A stretch of 19,750 nt of DNA from an uncultured archaeon (GTDB lineage: Archaea; Asgardarchaeota; Lokiarchaeia; Sigyniarchaeales; SOKP01), in assembly GCA_964632315.1 (NCBI GenBank), contig CAZWEM010000061.1, positions 1 through 19,750 of the forward strand, given 5' to 3'. The translations under genes and the position numbers were made by a program. Below, piece by piece: positions 824-19,747 of the stretch; the first letter of the stretch is position 1; each line of letters starts with the position of its first letter. Below the pieces are notes generated by a model. That model searched no databases, was not told where the DNA came from, and was given only the letters and a program-made list of their open reading frames with translations.

Positions 824-3067
824 TTAATCATCTAGAAACGCTTGATACTTTTTCTTCACTGGTTTATAATTACTTGATTGTTGTTGATTGGGGAAAGTTT
901 GTGATAATTCCTTCTCTTTGATTAGTGGAAATATATCAGCATAATTACTAGTTTGGGAAGCATTGCGTTTTATGGGTTTCTGATGCGAAGGAACTTGATG
1001 ATTTTCAACTTCATAGCTAAATTGCGCCATCCATTCAGAAGATAAATGCTCATTGATGAGGATAAAATCTTCTTCCAATAATTCAATGGGCTTTTGATAG
1101 AAGGGAATGGAAAACTCCGAACCAACGTGTTTAAGCGAGTGGAAATGGCGATAGAGTAGATACCCGATACATCCTCCATACACAAATATCAATCCAAAAC
1201 CTAAAGATATGAAAAATCTGATCACTTCTTGAAGTCCCATTATCAAGAAGAAGCTGAAGAGCACTCCATAAACTAGGAATGGTAATGAAAATAATTCTAA
1301 TTGCTTGAATGTGGACATTTTAACGTTCTTTACCTTCAATATTGCGTTCTGAGAAGTATCATGACGAATCAAGAGCCTATATTTCACTTCCAAGTATTCT
1401 AAAAGCTCATCAAGCTGATCGTAGGATATCACGTGGAGATTTAATCCTTGCTGGTAGGCATAGGGGAGTGTTTTTTCCATGCAATATACTCGTGAATCAG
1501 ACAATAGCACGGGGTCTATGATGACTTGGTACTCGATTTCACCTGAACCCAAGTATAACCGTTGGTTCTTGAAGGTTAAATCTGCTTTCATTAAAATTCC
1601 GATATAACGGGCAACTAAGGAAATAAGAGAATGACCATTAATCATATCTGAAAATAAATATTCACGGGCTTGTAGCAACTTCTTGGTGTGGGTGTTGATC
1701 GCCATGTTCTGAGCTGTCGTAGGATTACTATTTATTTTTCCAGTCATGACATGCGAATCCCAAACATAGACGGGATCTTCAGTAATCACGTGTTTGATAG
1801 GAACTAGTAAGATAATACAACGACCATTATCTCCCCTCATAGGCTTACATGCAAGGAGATCCACTGCACGAAAGACTTCCCGTAGTTCTGGGTTGTTCAT
1901 TGGAATCTCGATCATGCCTGCCTCGCGGATCACTTGTAAGATCTTCTGGGCTGACTGCTGTCGTTGAAATAATTGTTCAGCATTTGGTAAATTCTTAATC
2001 CTCTGTTCTCGATAGGGAATTCTGGACTTTTTTACTTTATCCTTAATTGCTGTATCATCTCCCAGAAATTCTGACTGTGTTTGAAAAAGATCTTGTTCAT
2101 CTTCGACCTCTATTATCGTCTTTTTTGAAGGAAAAATGGGAGTCTTGAGTGGAGGTAAATCTACTTCTTCCAGGAAACGATTTTTCTGAGGTAGTCTTGT
2201 ACAAGCATCATTAGATTGTTCTTGATCTAAATCTTCAATACTCAGGACTTCTTCCATCTCTTCTCCTATAGTCGGAAATTCTTCCTCTTCTGGATATTTT
2301 TCCTTTAAATCTTCAATCTGAACTTCAATCTCTGGCACTCTTCGTTCTACTTTATTTTTGGATACGATTTTTATTTGTTGCCGTAAATCTTCTGCATAAT
2401 GACTTGATTCCTTTCGATTGTGAAATTCTTTAATTGTTGTTGGAGAACTTTTGGAAGGTCTTACTGCCCACTCTGAAAGCTTCGATTCGGAACTATGTTT
2501 CTTTTGTTTGACTTCAACTTCAGATGACCCATTAATTGCTGAACGATCTCCAAGTTTTTGATACGGTGTTGGAGTATGAATTGAGGGCCCTTGAGGTACT
2601 GCCTCACCAGATGATGAAGAATTTTTATTCTTCAAATATGCTTGAGCGTTGTCTATGATCTTTTGGGCAGTTGAAATCCCCACTCCTGGTACACTAGTTA
2701 ATCGTTCGGGAGTACTGGAGGCAAGATTTTGGACGGAACTAAATCCATTCGAACGCAATTTTAAAGCAGTACTCTCTCCAATTCCTTTCACTTCCGAAAG
2801 ATCTACAGTGATATCACTTTCAGAAAACGTGGATCTTTCGTGAGATCCCTTTTCAAATTTAATCTTAGCCGAATATTCATTGAGAATCGCTTGGAACTTT
2901 TCTGCCCAATCTCTATTTCCTTGTTTCTTGGCTTGTTCGAGGGCTCTTTTCGCGATCATCTTGACTTGGGCTTCATCATTCAATTCTTGAGCTTCAGTCA
3001 ACATTTTCCTCAAGAACGAGAGATCCCATTCTTTCTCTGATGAAACTTGTGATTCTATACTTACCAT
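824..3067 (-). CDS. Membrane-anchored tandem helix-hairpin-helix DNA-binding protein (HhH2, long acidic linker, degenerate PD-(D/E)xK-like domain, 2 TM helices)
   Basis: 747-aa ORF. HhH motifs LSEVKGIGESTALKL and LTSVPGVGISTAQKI at about 2645-2803. Low-complexity E/S/P-rich middle. Two hydrophobic helices LFSLPFLVYGVLFSFFLIMGL and FFISLGFGLIFVYGGCIGYLLY at about 1150-1295. No N-terminal signal peptide. Confidence 0.8.
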   Translation of the reverse strand: MVSIESQVSSEKEWDLSFLRKMLTEAQELNDEAQVKMIAKRALEQAKKQGNRDWAEKFQAILNEYSAKIKFEKGSHERSTFSESDITVDLSEVKGIGESTALKLRSNGFSSVQNLASSTPERLTSVPGVGISTAQKIIDNAQAYLKNKNSSSSGEAVPQGPSIHTPTPYQKLGDRSAINGSSEVEVKQKKHSSESKLSEWAVRPSKSSPTTIKEFHNRKESSHYAEDLRQQIKIVSKNKVERRVPEIEVQIEDLKEKYPEEEEFPTIGEEMEEVLSIEDLDQEQSNDACTRLPQKNRFLEEVDLPPLKTPIFPSKKTIIEVEDEQDLFQTQSEFLGDDTAIKDKVKKSRIPYREQRIKNLPNAEQLFQRQQSAQKILQVIREAGMIEIPMNNPELREVFRAVDLLACKPMRGDNGRCIILLVPIKHVITEDPVYVWDSHVMTGKINSNPTTAQNMAINTHTKKLLQAREYLFSDMINGHSLISLVARYIGILMKADLTFKNQRLYLGSGEIEYQVIIDPVLLSDSRVYCMEKTLPYAYQQGLNLHVISYDQLDELLEYLEVKYRLLIRHDTSQNAILKVKNVKMSTFKQLELFSLPFLVYGVLFSFFLIMGLQEVIRFFISLGFGLIFVYGGCIGYLLYRHFHSLKHVGSEFSIPFYQKPIELLEEDFILINEHLSSEWMAQFSYEVENHQVPSHQKPIKRNASQTSNYADIFPLIKEKELSQTFPNQQQSSNYKPVKKKYQAFLDD

Positions 3068-15309: not shown

Positions 15310-15618
15310 GATAAATCTACAATTATTGTATTTTCATTACTTTCGTGGGGGATACTTATAAAAAACAAAACTCCTCATCTTGTCTATAAAACTTTTTAAT
15401 AAGATCTGATTTTGATTTTCATTCTCTTTCATTGGAGATGACATGAAGAATCATCATCGCATAAAATTAATCATCTACCCATTGATTTTGATCGTTACTA
15501 AGCATACTCCCCTAAGAAAATTATGCATAGAAACCTGATCCATATTACAAACTACTGACCCAACAGTTAGATTGCTCATTTAGGAATACTAAAAAATGGA
15601 GCGGAACCTAAATTTTAA

Positions 15619-15640: not shown

Positions 15641-16888
15641 TCAAAGTATTGCAGTTAACTCTGGAGGACCTTTCGGATATGGATACATGAAATTGCTAAG
15701 TTCAATTGAGAATCTCTCTCTCCCATTAACTCCATCAGGATTAATGTTTTTATATTGTATTGGGAACTTTTCACTATGGAGATCTCCTTCCGTTAATATA
15801 AAACAGCCAAAAGTGGTCGTTACGGCATAAATGTAATATTCCATCGATTCATGAGCATTGAACACGTCGGTGGCATTTCCAATCTTGATTCTTAATATCG
15901 ATACGGGTTGAGGATCTAATGCCAAATCATCCTCGATAACCCCTAGCTTGACCATTAGCTTGCGAAGTAGCTCAGAGGATCGTACTAAGCTCTCAAAACC
16001 TTCCACGCGTAATCTTTCAAATATTTTTTGCTCGATCTGCCGGTGAATCGTACTCATTTGAATTCCAACATGATTACATATAGTACTGACCTTTAAATCT
16101 CGCTCTGCTTCACATAGAGCAATAATACTGGTGCACACACCTGCCACTACATCATCTTTCGTGTTCTTAATAATTTGCCAAAACTTTTCCAATACTTTTT
16201 CAGCTGCGTGATAAAATTGCATGTCTTGGTTGAGTGCTGCCGTGATGTTCATGATCTTTTGAAGGATATATTGTTTTCGATCTCGTGAATAATATTGGGG
16301 GATGTAATCTCGTAATTGTAGTTTAAAACTGTTGAATTCTTTCTTGCTAATTTCTGATTTTTCCAAGAGCTCTTGCTCGTTTATTCCCTTACAATTTAAC
16401 TTAAAATAGAGATAGATCGTTATCGGGACTAACTTGCGAACACTACGATATTTCGTTCCCTTCTGTAAGCATTTACGTAGCTTTAGAAAGAGCTTCAATA
16501 CAGGATCAACCTCCCTTAAAGAAAGTCCTAAATTGGATAAGATCTTTTTGATTTCAAAACTCGCACTTACTTTAGCTCGCTCATCAGCATTTCTTTCAGA
16601 ATCTAATTTGCTCAATTTATCCAAACGTAGCGATTTTTCATTGCAGAATCGTTCTTTCACCGTCCCGATCTGAGTCCTACCCTTAGGAGCATGATGAATT
16701 ATTGATTCAGTATACGGACGATGATATTCCATTATGAGTCTCGAGAGAACAATACCGCAATCACCACAGACATACCCTTCGGGAGTCTTCTGGATATTTC
16801 GTGAGTGACATGCATCACATGAATCGATATCGATATCCTGATAATGTTCTATATCGTCTTGATATCTCTTGATCCTATCACTAGCCAT
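15641..16888 (-). CDS. tfb: Divergent TFB/TFIIB-family transcription initiation factor paralog with a C-terminal extension
   Basis: Zn ribbon CDAC...GYVCGDCGIVL. First cyclin-like repeat EIKKILSNLGL...KGTKYRS...ITIYL. Second cyclin-like repeat ending STICNHVGIQMSTI (BRE-binding HTH position). Followed by about 95 extra residues. ATG 16888 is preferred; GTG 16900 is possible. Confidence 0.8.
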   Translation of the reverse strand: MASDRIKRYQDDIEHYQDIDIDSCDACHSRNIQKTPEGYVCGDCGIVLSRLIMEYHRPYTESIIHHAPKGRTQIGTVKERFCNEKSLRLDKLSKLDSERNADERAKVSASFEIKKILSNLGLSLREVDPVLKLFLKLRKCLQKGTKYRSVRKLVPITIYLYFKLNCKGINEQELLEKSEISKKEFNSFKLQLRDYIPQYYSRDRKQYILQKIMNITAALNQDMQFYHAAEKVLEKFWQIIKNTKDDVVAGVCTSIIALCEAERDLKVSTICNHVGIQMSTIHRQIEQKIFERLRVEGFESLVRSSELLRKLMVKLGVIEDDLALDPQPVSILRIKIGNATDVFNAHESMEYYIYAVTTTFGCFILTEGDLHSEKFPIQYKNINPDGVNGRERFSIELSNFMYPYPKGPPELTAIL

Positions 16889-16958
16889 TTTTTTAACCAC
16901 TTTTTTTTGTTATTTATTTTTTATGAAAAAAATGACCTCGATTTTCTAGGCCACGATC

Positions 16959-16966
16959 TTATATAC
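16959..16966 (-). promoter_or_regulatory. Candidate TATA box of the TFB-like gene
   Basis: GTATATAA on the minus strand, about 70 nt upstream of the ATG, followed by G-ATCGT. Confidence 0.3.
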
Positions 16967-17511
16967 GCTAGAGTTTGGTTTTTAAAGTTTATCTTCGATC
17001 AAAAAATATTAGTTGTTTCTTAATTTAAATGCTCCAAAAAACGTGAACTATTAAATTTAGGATTTTTGATTTACCTATCTTTTCTTAAATGCCTGGATTT
17101 TCATATTATCAGTTAAGAATTAGAATTTAAAATTATGATTTTTGGTTATCAGGAAGTGAAAAAACCAAAATTTCACGATCCGTGATACACCCCTTGAAAT
17201 TAATCTTGAAGAAAAAGGTGGTATATACACTTTTAATAAAGAATTGCTTCTACTTTTTATTAAAATTAGATTTAACCAACCTAATCTTAGATAAAGATCT
17301 ATTGATCGAATGAGATAAGCGCGTAAAGCCGTGTCTTCCCGACACTTTTTAGAATAACATTTCTCGCTTTCTACTCTTAGTTCATAAATAGTTATTTAAA
17401 CTCAATGTTTTTTGAGGTAATCAATATTATTTGACAATTTTCTCTCAGTTTAAATTGAAAATCAAAATATGCGATTTTTTTCTTTATTAGTGACCATTTC
17501 AACAATATTAC

Positions 17512-18288
17512 ATGTATCTAGCGATTGATTTTTGGTACTGGGTTCTTGGTATTTGGATTGTCTCTCAACTTTCCTGGTATTTATATTCCTTTGCTCGGGG
17601 TGTATTTCGTGCTTGTTTGAACATCCTTTTTTTCCTGGGGGTTATAGTTCATGAATTTAGTCACTTCATCGTGAGTTTAATATGTGGAGTACCCGTGGAA
17701 CGGATCGAAATTAGATGGAGAAGCTCTAATGGATTTAGCATAGGTCCCCATGGATCAATAGCCACTGGGGATTTTCCACACAGGTCGTTTATGAAAGGCT
17801 TGATGATCTCTTTTGCACCACTGTTAATGTCTACATTTTTGTTATTTGGGTGTATTGACATTATTTCAGTTATCAAAACTAGTTTCTTCATTAAAATTTT
17901 AGCAATAATTTTTGCAATTTCCTTATTATTAACCGCTGCCCCTTCAAAGCAAGACTTAAATGTTGTAGTATTGGCCGTATCAAATGATACCTTACTTGCT
18001 TTTTTTCAGGCTGCGTGCTTTGGAATTTCTTTACTTTTTAGCATTACACTCATAAATTTCTCGAAATTTCAATTGCCGTTTGAATTCATGTATTACATAT
18101 TATATTTTCTAGCAAGTATTGTGGTCTACTTTGTCATTTTTTATTCCTTGAAGTGGACGGGAATGGGAATTTGGACGATTTATCGAAAACTTTCCAGGAG
18201 AGACAATTCGTTATCCAATCGAAGCTTGAATCGCAAACGGATAAAGTCCAAAAAGCATCCGAAAGAAAAAGAAGGAGAGTGGTGGTGA
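17512..18288 (+). CDS. Integral-membrane zinc metalloprotease, M50/site-2-protease-like (M50B/DUF3267-type)
   Basis: GVIVHEFSHFIV (HExxH inside a hydrophobic helix), ISFAPL, and APSKQD (candidate third-ligand Asp). About 6 TM helices and a basic C-terminal tail. Confidence 0.78.
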   Translation: MYLAIDFWYWVLGIWIVSQLSWYLYSFARGVFRACLNILFFLGVIVHEFSHFIVSLICGVPVERIEIRWRSSNGFSIGPHGSIATGDFPHRSFMKGLMISFAPLLMSTFLLFGCIDIISVIKTSFFIKILAIIFAISLLLTAAPSKQDLNVVVLAVSNDTLLAFFQAACFGISLLFSITLINFSKFQLPFEFMYYILYFLASIVVYFVIFYSLKWTGMGIWTIYRKLSRRDNSLSNRSLNRKRIKSKKHPKEKEGEWW

Positions 18289-18290
18289 AA

Positions 18291-18632
18291 ATGAAGGGAA
18301 TGTGTTTTTTGATAGTTGCCTTTGCTCTAATCCTTTCCTATCAAAAAAATCCGCTTGGGACCATAATAATTGGAGGAATAGGTATCGTAATTTATGCCGT
18401 CTTCAAATCAAGGAAAAAGAGTACTGGATCGCGAAGGGGATGGATATTTAATAAGGGAAGTGCCCATCAAATCTCACAAATGGATGACCTGATTAAATTG
18501 TTAGTGGTTCAAAATTTTTTGAATGATAGAAGAGAGACGGTAGAAACACGAGAGGAAAAAGAACCTTCCAAAAATTTCAAGGATCTTGAAAAAATAAAAA
18601 ATGAAACCCTCTCTCTATTTGATGAGGTTTAG
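18291..18632 (+). CDS. Small membrane protein (113 aa): N-terminal 2-TM hairpin plus charged cytoplasmic tail
   Basis: The ATG at 18291 follows GGTGGTGA, which contains the upstream stop. Sequence is CFLIVAFALILSY / LGTIIIGGIGIVIYAVF-KSRKK followed by a helical tail. Confidence 0.7.
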   Translation: MKGMCFLIVAFALILSYQKNPLGTIIIGGIGIVIYAVFKSRKKSTGSRRGWIFNKGSAHQISQMDDLIKLLVVQNFLNDRRETVETREEKEPSKNFKDLEKIKNETLSLFDEV

Positions 18633-18636
18633 AAAT

Positions 18637-19338
18637 GTGGAAAACATTATCTCACTAATAAAATGCCATCTGAATGGAGATAGCGAAATACTTTCTCTCT
18701 CAGGACCATCAGCTTCGGGAAAGACAACATTAGCATTACAAATCATCAGTAATTTAATCAAACCAAATAAACAAGAAAAATCGATCTGGATTCAAGCAAG
18801 TGAGCTTTTTCCGAAGAGGAGATTGGATGCCCTCCTTCTTAAGAATTTATCTCAAAAAAAATATGTTTTACAAAATACCTTTATTTTTCCTTCCGATCAC
18901 GTACTTTCTTCTTTCGAAGAACAACAAGAATTATTGCGGAGACTTACCACTCAATTATACCCTCCTGAGACAAAATATCTCGTAATTGATAACATCTCCC
19001 ATCACTTGCGATTAGCTCTATCCTTACAGAGGGATTTATCTCAATGCTCAAAGTTAGTGAATCAATTTTTCGATGAGGCTTTATTTCCACTTATTATGAG
19101 ATGCAAGAGAGAACAAATAAACTTAATAATGATCCATGAGGTGTCTCAAGACCCTCACTCTGGGGAGATTCGTCCTTTTTATAACAAATTATTTAAAAGA
19201 ATTGAATCACTATCGGTTTACTTTCAAGGTTTAATTCGTTTCGGGACCCAATCATTACGTGTTACTCCTCGAGAAAAGCCTACATTTCGACTTTTATATG
19301 AATTAAGAGATGAAGGAGTTTTCACTTGTTCTTTATAA
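18637..19338 (+). CDS. RecA/Rad51-superfamily ATPase, RadB-like paralog (no N-terminal HhH domain)
   Basis: ILSLSGPSASGKTTLALQI (Walker A), SIWIQASELFPKRRL, YLVIDNIS (Walker B) and INLIMIHEV. About 233 aa. GAGGT at 18624-18628 precedes the in-frame GTG at 18637; ATG 18622 is the alternative start. Confidence 0.8.
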   Translation: MENIISLIKCHLNGDSEILSLSGPSASGKTTLALQIISNLIKPNKQEKSIWIQASELFPKRRLDALLLKNLSQKKYVLQNTFIFPSDHVLSSFEEQQELLRRLTTQLYPPETKYLVIDNISHHLRLALSLQRDLSQCSKLVNQFFDEALFPLIMRCKREQINLIMIHEVSQDPHSGEIRPFYNKLFKRIESLSVYFQGLIRFGTQSLRVTPREKPTFRLLYELRDEGVFTCSL

Positions 19339-19360
19339 ACTCTCACCGTAAATCACCTTC

Positions 19361-19747
19361 ATGGACGTCTTGGAGAAAGGCACTAAAATTCAAGAAATTC
19401 GCTGTTGTATCTGTCATGCGGTTATCACATCCATAGAGGGAGTGTATCAATCCCCTTTTAATTATGCTCTTGCATGTAAAGCCTGTTCAAGTTTATTCAC
19501 CAAAGATGACCTCGAAATGATGATGAGCCTTTTTTTTCTTTTTGGGGGCTATTTTGGAGAACTTGGAAGTGAGCTGTTTAATTTAGAAGTAGTATTAGAT
19601 TCGATTGGTGAATCAATTCCTATAGATTTTGATGATTTAGAATCTATTAACCAAAGAGTAATGCATGTTGCTCTCTTACATGGGCTTGGTCCTTCAGATT
19701 TCAATAGGATCTTGAAGGGATATATTGAATCAGAATTTGAGGATTAA
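19361..19747 (+). CDS. Zn-finger-containing hypothetical protein (128 aa), last visible gene of the protease-RadB-like operon
   Basis: RCCICH...LACKAC, followed by a helical acidic domain. It starts 22 nt after the RadB-like stop. Confidence 0.75.
   Translation: MDVLEKGTKIQEIRCCICHAVITSIEGVYQSPFNYALACKACSSLFTKDDLEMMMSLFFLFGGYFGELGSELFNLEVVLDSIGESIPIDFDDLESINQRVMHVALLHGLGPSDFNRILKGYIESEFED

Follow-up and report, generated by a model that had tools for sequence, protein, structure and literature searches.

A divergent TFB paralog, a rare promoter element and a predicted intramembrane protease operon in a conserved Lokiarchaeia-type accessory gene block

Archaeal transcription is thought to be regulated mostly by repressors and activators of the bacterial type, and we know of few clear cases in which a paralog of transcription factor B (TFB) has its own promoter code. 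The truncated TFB3, which has no cyclin core, is tied to the DNA-damage programme of the Sulfolobales, with its Ups pili and Ced DNA importer. In bacteria, the RseP/RseA/sigma-E system and the extracytoplasmic function (ECF) sigma systems combine a site-2 protease (S2P) with an alternative initiation factor and a small membrane protein, and in the SpoIVFB/BofA/SpoIVFA/pro-sigma-K system of Bacillus the substrate is the initiation factor itself and the inhibitor, BofA, is a small protein with two transmembrane segments (2-TM). Here we describe a locus that brings such parts together on a 19,750-nucleotide (nt) stretch from an uncultured archaeon of the Lokiarchaeia (contig CAZWEM010000061.1, hereafter the window), which is the whole of contig C61 of the Asgard genome G000 (4.45 Mb, 119 contigs). 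A gene for a TFB paralog lies divergently, head-to-head with an operon for an S2P-like protease; the protease gene is followed by the genes for a 2-TM protein, a RecA-like ATPase and a zinc protein (ZnF), in that order. Relatives of the window proteins carry the label Promethearchaeota.

Like the RseP/RseA/sigma-E and ECF systems, the locus places the gene for a protease, here a putative S2P with HExxH motif and distal Asp, beside those for an alternative initiation factor and a small membrane protein. Unlike in the RseP system, a TFB takes the place of the sigma factor, a PDZ domain is missing from the protease, a site-1 protease is not evident, and the small membrane protein has two transmembrane segments with a C-terminal tail where an N-terminal anti-sigma domain would be expected; the gene for this protein goes with that of the ATPase and not with that of the factor. 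The compact S2P of the SpoIVFB system is the best structural match to the window protease (8vjl, Z 8.6), but the likeness is at the level of the fold only (13% identity), the window protease lacks a CBS domain, and the minimal TFB of the type-2 loci described below has no obvious pro-sequence. With TFB3 and other alternative TFBs, the locus shares a non-canonical TFB among, or controlling, genes for membrane machinery and for recombination or repair; here, however, the paralog is full length, carries an extra C-terminal extension and an altered helix for reading the TFB recognition element (BRE), and belongs to another lineage and gene set. We know of no private BRE-like element described for TFB3. 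The ATPase resembles RadB/aRadC and the eukaryotic Rad51 paralogs (Rad55-Rad57, XRCC3, and the Shu/SWS1 zinc-finger partners) in being a small RecA-fold protein with intact Walker motifs and without an N-terminal helix-hairpin-helix (HhH) domain, and in that the genes for a zinc-binding protein and a recombinase of the RadA family lie beside its own. It differs from them in that its gene shows translational coupling to those for a membrane protein and a protease, a coupling that we do not know of for any Rad51 paralog.

The reading that we favour, at a probability of about 0.5, is that of a private TFB together with a membrane/recombination module that it targets. The TFB paralog would be the block's own initiation factor, serving a rare class of promoters composed of a T-run, a C and a TATA box, because its BRE helix is changed and the rare promoter stands at nearly every unit head of the contig, typically 29–36 nt 5' of an ATG without a Shine-Dalgarno motif. 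The protease operon would primarily be a target of this factor; given that most other units of the contig have the same rare promoter, the operon resembles a TFB target no less than a regulator of TFB. Its three products would come together in a membrane complex, in which the 2-TM protein serves as a tether for the RecA-like ATPase; together with the surface protein encoded next to the TFB gene, this complex would feed into the adjacent recombination genes. In addition, the protease may act back on TFB through a cut in a tether or in the extension of TFB itself.

The identities of the encoded proteins were tested through ortholog alignments from related genomes (A1 to A5), the curated libraries giving sub-threshold matches. 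The protease gene is present in 19 of the 24 other genomes of the genus and, family-wide, in 53 of 68. The order protease, 2-TM protein, ATPase and ZnF is intact, with the TFB gene divergent upstream, in every genus locus where the contig allows it to be followed (17/17), and in four other genera of the family (g12, g13, g15 and g17) 8 of 10 type-1 loci, the architecture of the window, keep the order from the surface protein through TFB, protease and 2-TM protein to the ATPase. The conservation of gene order and of the adjacent tfb that the original prediction had set out to be checked is therefore found in all 17 of these genus loci and, through the ATPase, in most type-1 loci elsewhere. The genus loci keep this order at 30–55% protein identity, despite insertions around and inside the cluster; since order and orientation recur at such low identity, the arrangement is not one of chance. 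Two members of the genus with 95% complete genomes (G153 and G258) lack the protease, the TFB clade and the ATPase all together, and where G201 appears to have lost the protease alone, its contig happens to end precisely at the 2-TM gene. The 2-TM gene is always immediately 5' of the ATPase gene, even at locus L072, where the two lie 3.6 kb from the protease gene and have their own promoter; judged by gene order, they are the tightest pair in the cluster. Collectively, the genes of the window locus form the conserved core of an accessory gene block of the Lokiarchaeia type (Promethearchaeota).

The promoter element conserved at these loci reads TTTTTYC followed by TTTAWAWA, with the T-run and C exactly at the BRE position, ahead of the TATA box. 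It lies at −29 relative to the protease ATG in the window; across 15 genus loci its position ranges from −29 to −36, and other genera have it at −29 to −34. A second copy precedes the ZnF gene, where the TATA box is preceded by a T-rich element and shares nucleotides with the ATPase stop codon, 29 nt 5' of the ATG; this element is found at −28 to −32 in all 18 loci and also in three loci of other genera. A third stands before the gene for the surface protein (−57 to −63 in related loci). No comparable element precedes the 2-TM and ATPase genes in the compared loci. A position weight matrix (PWM) was built from the protease and surface-protein promoters of other genomes only, with a threshold of at least 11 bits. 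Matches at this level lie upstream of 78 of the 3721 genes of G000 (2.1%) and of 6 of the 13 genes of the contig (Fisher 1e-7); without the two sites orthologous to those in the matrix, 4 of 11 contig genes remain (p 5e-5). The best intergenic match in the whole genome, at 22.3 bits, is also on the contig (3100–3118, minus strand), 36 nt before the ATG of a gene for a 747-residue protein (824–3067). The other unit heads with matches are the Hel308-like gene (−89), the g10850/Hef operon (−30), and the surface-protein, protease and ZnF genes. Across the genome, upstream regions have a G peak of the Shine-Dalgarno (SD) type between −12 and −8, and a TATA signal at −29 is absent. The idea that the T-run/C-TATA element is a general promoter, raised by its presence before 12% of the 'other' genes of the loci retrieved, was rejected on these grounds, as it occurs at 2% genome-wide, where an SD signal is seen instead; the 12% figure is misleading because the control genes belong to the same gene block. 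A simple regular expression for the motif was also dropped, most of its matches being inside genes.

The window protein encoded divergently from the protease is, on profile and model evidence, a genuine but remote TFB paralog. The four Cys residues of its zinc ribbon (C28, C31, C45 and C48) are invariant among 15 sequences (alignment A1), and a profile of the 15 orthologs, searched against the PDB, matches the first cyclin repeat of human TFIIB at the corresponding position as well as the zinc ribbon of P. furiosus TFB (1pft). Pfam Zn_Ribbon_TF matches at E 0.03; PF00382 (TFIIB repeat) does not match the paralog at E≤1, and a genome scan with it retrieves only seven other TFBs. In the AlphaFold2 (AF2) model, the core (residues 100–320) forms two cyclin folds with a predicted local distance difference test score (pLDDT) of 77–93, and the prediction is poor for the N-terminus, the B-reader region and the final 100 residues. 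Foldseek searches with the core return almost exclusively TFIIB, TFB and Brf, including all of the top 30, among them P. woesei TFB (1d3u_B; template modelling score 0.78, root-mean-square deviation (rmsd) 3.2 Å over 203 columns, E 1.6e-5) and 7egb_R (E 2e-7). The TFB identity proposed from the window alone is thus upheld by profile and fold. The protein has a conserved C-terminal extension of ~100 residues that ends in KGPP, and no membrane-directing hydrophobic segment was visible by eye in alignment A1 or in relatives. The BRE-reading helix at the end of the second cyclin repeat is known from structures of TFB/TBP/DNA complexes. When the clade is aligned to the seven canonical TFBs of the genome, this helix reads a near-invariant MSTIHRQ, in contrast to TEVTLRSR or TEVTVRNR in all seven. 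A divergent TFB with a rewritten BRE helix and a rare element at the BRE position would make a testable factor/promoter pair in Asgard archaea.

The TFB complement of G000 comprises the seven canonical proteins (contigs C16, C20, C25, C3, C58, C24 and C34) and three of the divergent clade, namely the window copy and two shorter ones (C65:13434-14264 and C66:9717-10418). Related genomes have 7–11 canonical TFBs, a large expansion of the family.

The features of the locus are collected in Table 1. The ORF list bears out the five genes at the positions first proposed, and the gaps of 2, 4 and 22 nt, with SD motifs at the first two junctions, can be read directly from the sequence. The protease stop codon (TGA, 18286–18288) is overlapped by a GGAG/GGTGGTG motif for the 2-TM gene, and the stop codon of the latter (TAG, 18630–18632) is followed by the GTG start of the ATPase gene, with GAGG 10 nt 5' of it. 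This GTG is preferred over the in-frame ATG codons at 18601 and 18622, which have no SD-like motif, because the spacing of GAGG fits the genome-wide G peak. The 2-TM gene is translationally coupled to both of its neighbours. The ATPase gene ends with TAA (19336–19338), 22 nt before the ZnF start. The claim of four coupled genes holds for the protease, 2-TM protein and ATPase; the fourth, ZnF, has its own conserved promoter. Given the SD-like motifs at the internal starts and the lack of a promoter element before the 2-TM and ATPase genes in the compared loci, the sequence argues for a coupled operon of three genes, with ZnF as a separate unit. The ZnF mRNA is probably leaderless, and so, in view of the missing SD motif before the protease ATG, is that of the protease operon.

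Table 1. Coordinates of the features discussed, in window numbering unless a locus (L) is named.
Feature	Position	Strand	Basis
Surface protein (BIG), 969 aa	12400–15309	−	Pfam PF00432, E 1.5e-18
Promoter-like element of the surface-protein gene: T-rich stretch and TATA, ~53 nt 5' of ATG	15353–15371	−	PWM, 11.8 bits
Divergent TFB paralog	15641–16888 (ATG, 415 aa) or 16900 (GTG, 419 aa)	−	profile, fold, alignment
Probable promoter of the protease operon: T-run and C (17475–17482), TATA-like box TTTATTAG (17483–17490)	17475–17490	+	PWM, 15.8 bits
S2P/M50-like protease, 258 aa	17512–18288	+	alignment A2, AF2, structural matches
2-TM protein, 113 aa	18291–18632	+	alignment A3
RadA-paralog (RadB/Rad51-paralog-like) ATPase, ~233 aa from GTG 18637	18637–19338	+	alignment A4, profile against PDB
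TATA box of the separate ZnF promoter	19332–19339	+	sequence and conservation
Zinc protein (ZnF), 128 aa	19361–19747	+	alignment A5
Genes beside the S2P-like gene in families f16/f19	L083:1905-6842; L084:2874-6887; L084:2243-2866		

Alignment and model together identify the first gene of the operon as encoding an S2P/M50-like predicted intramembrane zinc protease with an intact active-site signature. H47, E48 and H51 of the HExxH motif are invariant (alignment A2) and lie within helix 30–57 of the AF2 model (pLDDT 86.6); A102-P103-L104 and P144-S145-x-x-D148 are invariant or nearly so. D148, a candidate third zinc ligand, stands at the start of helix 146–158. The protein further has a beta hairpin (62–85) and a basic cytoplasmic tail. 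The conservation of HExxH and the distal Asp on which the original prediction depended extends beyond the orthologs, as HExxH, APL and PSxxD are kept in 27 of 29 family members from five Asgard families compared with the window protein; the two exceptional paralogs (family f2; L046:5836-6804 and L050:1100-2020) have RExxH and PTxxD in place of HExxH and PSxxD and are probably catalytically dead. Foldseek searches with the model placed SpoIVFB and MjS2P highest, at weak E values of 0.02–0.08. A second structural aligner, run against 48,161 chains, ranked SpoIVFB, two RseP orthologs and MjS2P first to fourth (Z 8.6, 8.6, 8.2 and 7.1; 121–130 residues, rmsd 4.5–5.3, covering residues 20–160), with unrelated helical proteins next at Z 6.9. 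The protease scores 16.7 bits against PF13398 (cut-off 26) and 14.0 bits against PF02163 (cut-off 27.2), the NCBIfam RseP model matches around HExxH only, and some distant family members match PF13398 or DUF3267 at 1e-5. The family has 1052 representatives at E≤1e-3 and 91 at E≤1e-30, annotated as hypothetical only.

The partners of the protease vary between architectures. The surface protein of the window, which has a signal peptide, a prenyltransferase-type alpha/alpha toroid domain and a C-terminal membrane anchor, has its gene beside that of TFB at most related loci. In type-2 loci (L040, L041, L043, L052 and L070), a 252-residue protease paralog, 25% identical, is encoded directly 3' of a divergent-clade TFB of 302 residues; this adjacency was seen in 5 of 7 loci, and the series continues with a HerA-like ATPase (DUF87; PADLOC mad8 7e-18) and a protein of 1000–1350 residues without a known domain. 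In type 3 (family f2), the genes for a 411-residue TFB, a 1070-residue homolog of the surface protein and a 294-residue protease are clustered with different accessory genes. In genome G017, three of the four divergent-clade TFB genes neighbour three of the four protease genes, which would happen by chance at ~2e-8. The C-terminal extension of TFB is present in types 1 and 3, and the type-2 TFB has neither an N- nor a C-terminal extension; the 2-TM gene is missing from the TFB-protease clusters of types 2 and 3. In families f16 and f19, the protease gene is directly followed by that for a protein of 1337–1645 residues with a prenyltransferase-type toroid and Ig domains, TFB is absent, and in f19 a Rad51/RecA-like ATPase of 207 residues comes next after the protease and the surface protein. 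Since protease and surface protein are found together in these families in the absence of TFB, their gene neighbourhoods mark this association, whether or not a RecA-like ATPase joins it, as older than the link to TFB. The recurrent adjacency of TFB and protease keeps a regulatory link between them plausible.

Several points weigh against a private TFB with a target module. The assignment of the TFB paralog to the rare promoters would follow from co-location and the changed helix. The PWM is AT-rich and gives many high scores inside genes, and the 11 tRNA genes found in the genome gave 10 usable upstream regions, too few to define its canonical BRE. The promoter of the TFB gene itself fits the motif weakly (10.2 bits, and negative in most relatives), so that something else must turn TFB on. 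On the protein side, the structural matches of the protease are moderate (Z 7–8.6; Foldseek E 0.02) and every Pfam or NCBIfam match is under its curated cut-off, and the ATPase could be a plain recombination mediator, physically apart from the membrane proteins.

A different conserved element lies upstream of the TFB gene (window ~16940–16990, minus strand; also L024-L039, L066, L067 and L077). In genus g1 it reads ACTGGTGATCTT at some loci and ACTCCCCATCTTC at others, and in g12 and g13 it reads AACTCCTTCCTTATATT; it is possibly an operator for whatever turns TFB on.

The original prediction took the 2-TM protein for a membrane-bound anti-TFB: a RadB-like protein would sense single-stranded DNA or damage, and the protease would cleave the 2-TM protein and free TFB, as an analogue of the RseP/RseA/sigma-E circuit with an SOS-type sensor. 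The 2-TM protein consists of a tight N-terminal hairpin, a basic stretch and a cytoplasmic tail of ~75 residues with two conserved helices; it matches no known family in Pfam or NCBIfam, and its relatives in the ESM Atlas are hypothetical proteins of Promethearchaeota only. All the parts of such a switch exist and are conserved together with tfb, the catalytic signature of the protease is kept, the cytoplasmic tail of the 2-TM protein is conserved with its two helices, and the C-terminal extension of TFB is restricted to architectures with extra accessory proteins (types 1 and 3, but not 2). However, the 2-TM gene stays with the ATPase gene, not with TFB and protease, when the cluster splits at L072, the type-2 pair of TFB and protease does without the 2-TM protein, and the distant families have the protease with a surface protein and no TFB. 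No candidate for a site-1 protease was seen. S2Ps normally cleave N-in (type II) helices, and freeing the C-terminal tail would require a cut in the second, oppositely oriented helix of the 2-TM protein. A complex prediction for the protease and the 2-TM protein with TFB as partner scored 0.00, which speaks neither for nor against binding. We consider a post-translational switch of this kind, in which the protease turns the private TFB on, the 2-TM protein serves as a tether or inhibitor and the RecA-like ATPase supplies the input, decidedly unlikely. If it existed, it would be the first control of a basal transcription factor by regulated intramembrane proteolysis in archaea, a counterpart of sigma/anti-sigma control in the lineage closest to eukaryotes that carries an envelope or DNA signal to a recombination gene block.

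The pairing of TFB and protease in all three architectures would also suit a scheme like that of SpoIVFB, in which the protease removes an inhibitory extension from a pro-TFB and the 2-TM protein, as a BofA-like inhibitor, fills the active-site cleft until a signal arrives. The top structural match is SpoIVFB in its complex with pro-sigma-K, BofA, too, is small and has two transmembrane segments, and the ~100-residue C-terminal extension of TFB is conserved and poorly folded in the model. Against this, the type-2 TFB of 302 residues is still paired with a protease although it has no extensions, TFB has no hydrophobic segment with which to reach the membrane, and the top rank of SpoIVFB means little, as all solved S2Ps score alike. 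Such processing of TFB seems to us very improbable.

The ATPase has an invariant Walker A motif, GxSGxGKT (G28, S30, G33, K34 and T35; alignment A4), an invariant Walker B motif, VIDNISH (V121–S126 being VIDNIS), and no N-terminal HhH domain. Its profile, searched against the PDB, matches Rad57 (4e-11), XRCC3 (3e-8), RadA (3e-6) and RadB (4e-5). As it reaches 42 bits against the RadB equivalog TIGR02237, far under the cut-off of 172.4, its sequence marks it as a RadA paralog and not a RadB ortholog. In ZnF, four invariant Cys residues (C15, C18, C39 and C42; alignment A5) precede a helical domain that contains the motif FGGYFG; the protein falls into no known family, and its ESM Atlas relatives are again hypothetical proteins of Promethearchaeota only. 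Overall, the proposed identities of the gene products as a TFB, a Rad51-paralog ATPase and a four-Cys zinc protein have been borne out, an S2P-like fold is the probable one for the protease, and none of the refuting outcomes named with the original prediction turned up among those checked. A metagenome contig (L062) that is 100% identical to the window extends 1.6 kb past its end and carries, 124 nt 3' of the ZnF gene, a radA paralog for 406 residues (L062:4606-5826, plus strand), just before which the window assembly ends. Its product has a Rad51 domain (1.4e-68) and both N- and C-terminal HhH motifs, the latter after an acidic linker. The sequencing runs listed for the sequence are DNA runs from salt-marsh and marsh metagenomes, with no RNA run among them. 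The canonical RadA of G000 (324 residues) is encoded on C28, apart from the locus.

These neighbours allow the transcript to be read as carrying two unrelated functions, with the ATPase, ZnF and radA as a recombination-mediator set, the protease and the 2-TM protein serving the envelope or the surface protein, and TFB as a mere neighbour. A radA paralog lies 3' of the ZnF gene in most relatives, the closest matches of the ATPase profile are Rad57 and XRCC3, the contig also encodes Hef- and Hel308-like helicases, and a homolog of the surface protein is the partner of the protease in families f16 and f19. Yet the 4-nt, SD-coupled junction of the 2-TM and ATPase genes is conserved, and the two stay together where they are isolated from the rest; moreover, a small Rad51/RecA-like ATPase again follows protease and surface protein in f19, from which the link between ATPase and membrane would be an old one. 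On balance, we regard two separate functions as unlikely.

The cluster could also belong to a mobile element or an antiviral defence system, with the protease and ATPases as effectors or sensors. Some genomes of the genus lack the block although they are nearly complete, TFB homologs are encoded by Asgard viruses and mobile elements (bioRxiv 10.1101/2021.07.29.453957), and the HerA-like ATPase of the type-2 loci matches the defence-associated mad8 and HerA models. For the type-1 proteins, by contrast, PADLOC and PHROG give generic P-loop matches only, scans of IMG/VR with both protease types returned no relatives, the window holds no integrase, and the flanking synteny (Hef, g10850) is common to different genomes. 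A mobile or defence origin is the least probable of the explanations weighed here.

A private TFB with its target module remains our preferred reading. The parts of the locus belong to known superfamilies as new members, and the conserved combination in which they occur is undescribed. Three associations appear not to have been described: that of the TFB clade with the S2P subfamily, that of the protease with the alpha/alpha-toroid surface protein, and that of the protease with small RecA-like ATPases. A literature search on site-2 proteases, archaea and TFB found no relevant description. Together the three suggest a connection from membrane to DNA, which may lie in signalling, in the tethering of recombination mediators or in DNA handling at the envelope, and for which, to our knowledge, there is no worked-out precedent. 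What the analysis adds is the S2P subfamily with its conserved catalytic motifs, the operon structure, the associations of TFB with protease and of protease with surface protein, and the changed BRE helix; even if the protease does not control TFB, the module defines several new Asgard-specific protein families.

Two further observations concern radA. A second contig of G000 (C77; L055:1144-2409) encodes a RadA of 421 residues with an N-terminal, zinc-finger-like CxxC...H segment and a long acidic linker before the HhH/ATPase core. In four loci (L024:8746-10039, L030:8844-10113, L033:2026-3202 and L036:2195-3413), the radA paralog is called as two ORFs of ~253–291 and 140–141 residues that overlap by ~8 nt, which would fit a conserved split, a programmed frameshift or an assembly error common to all four.

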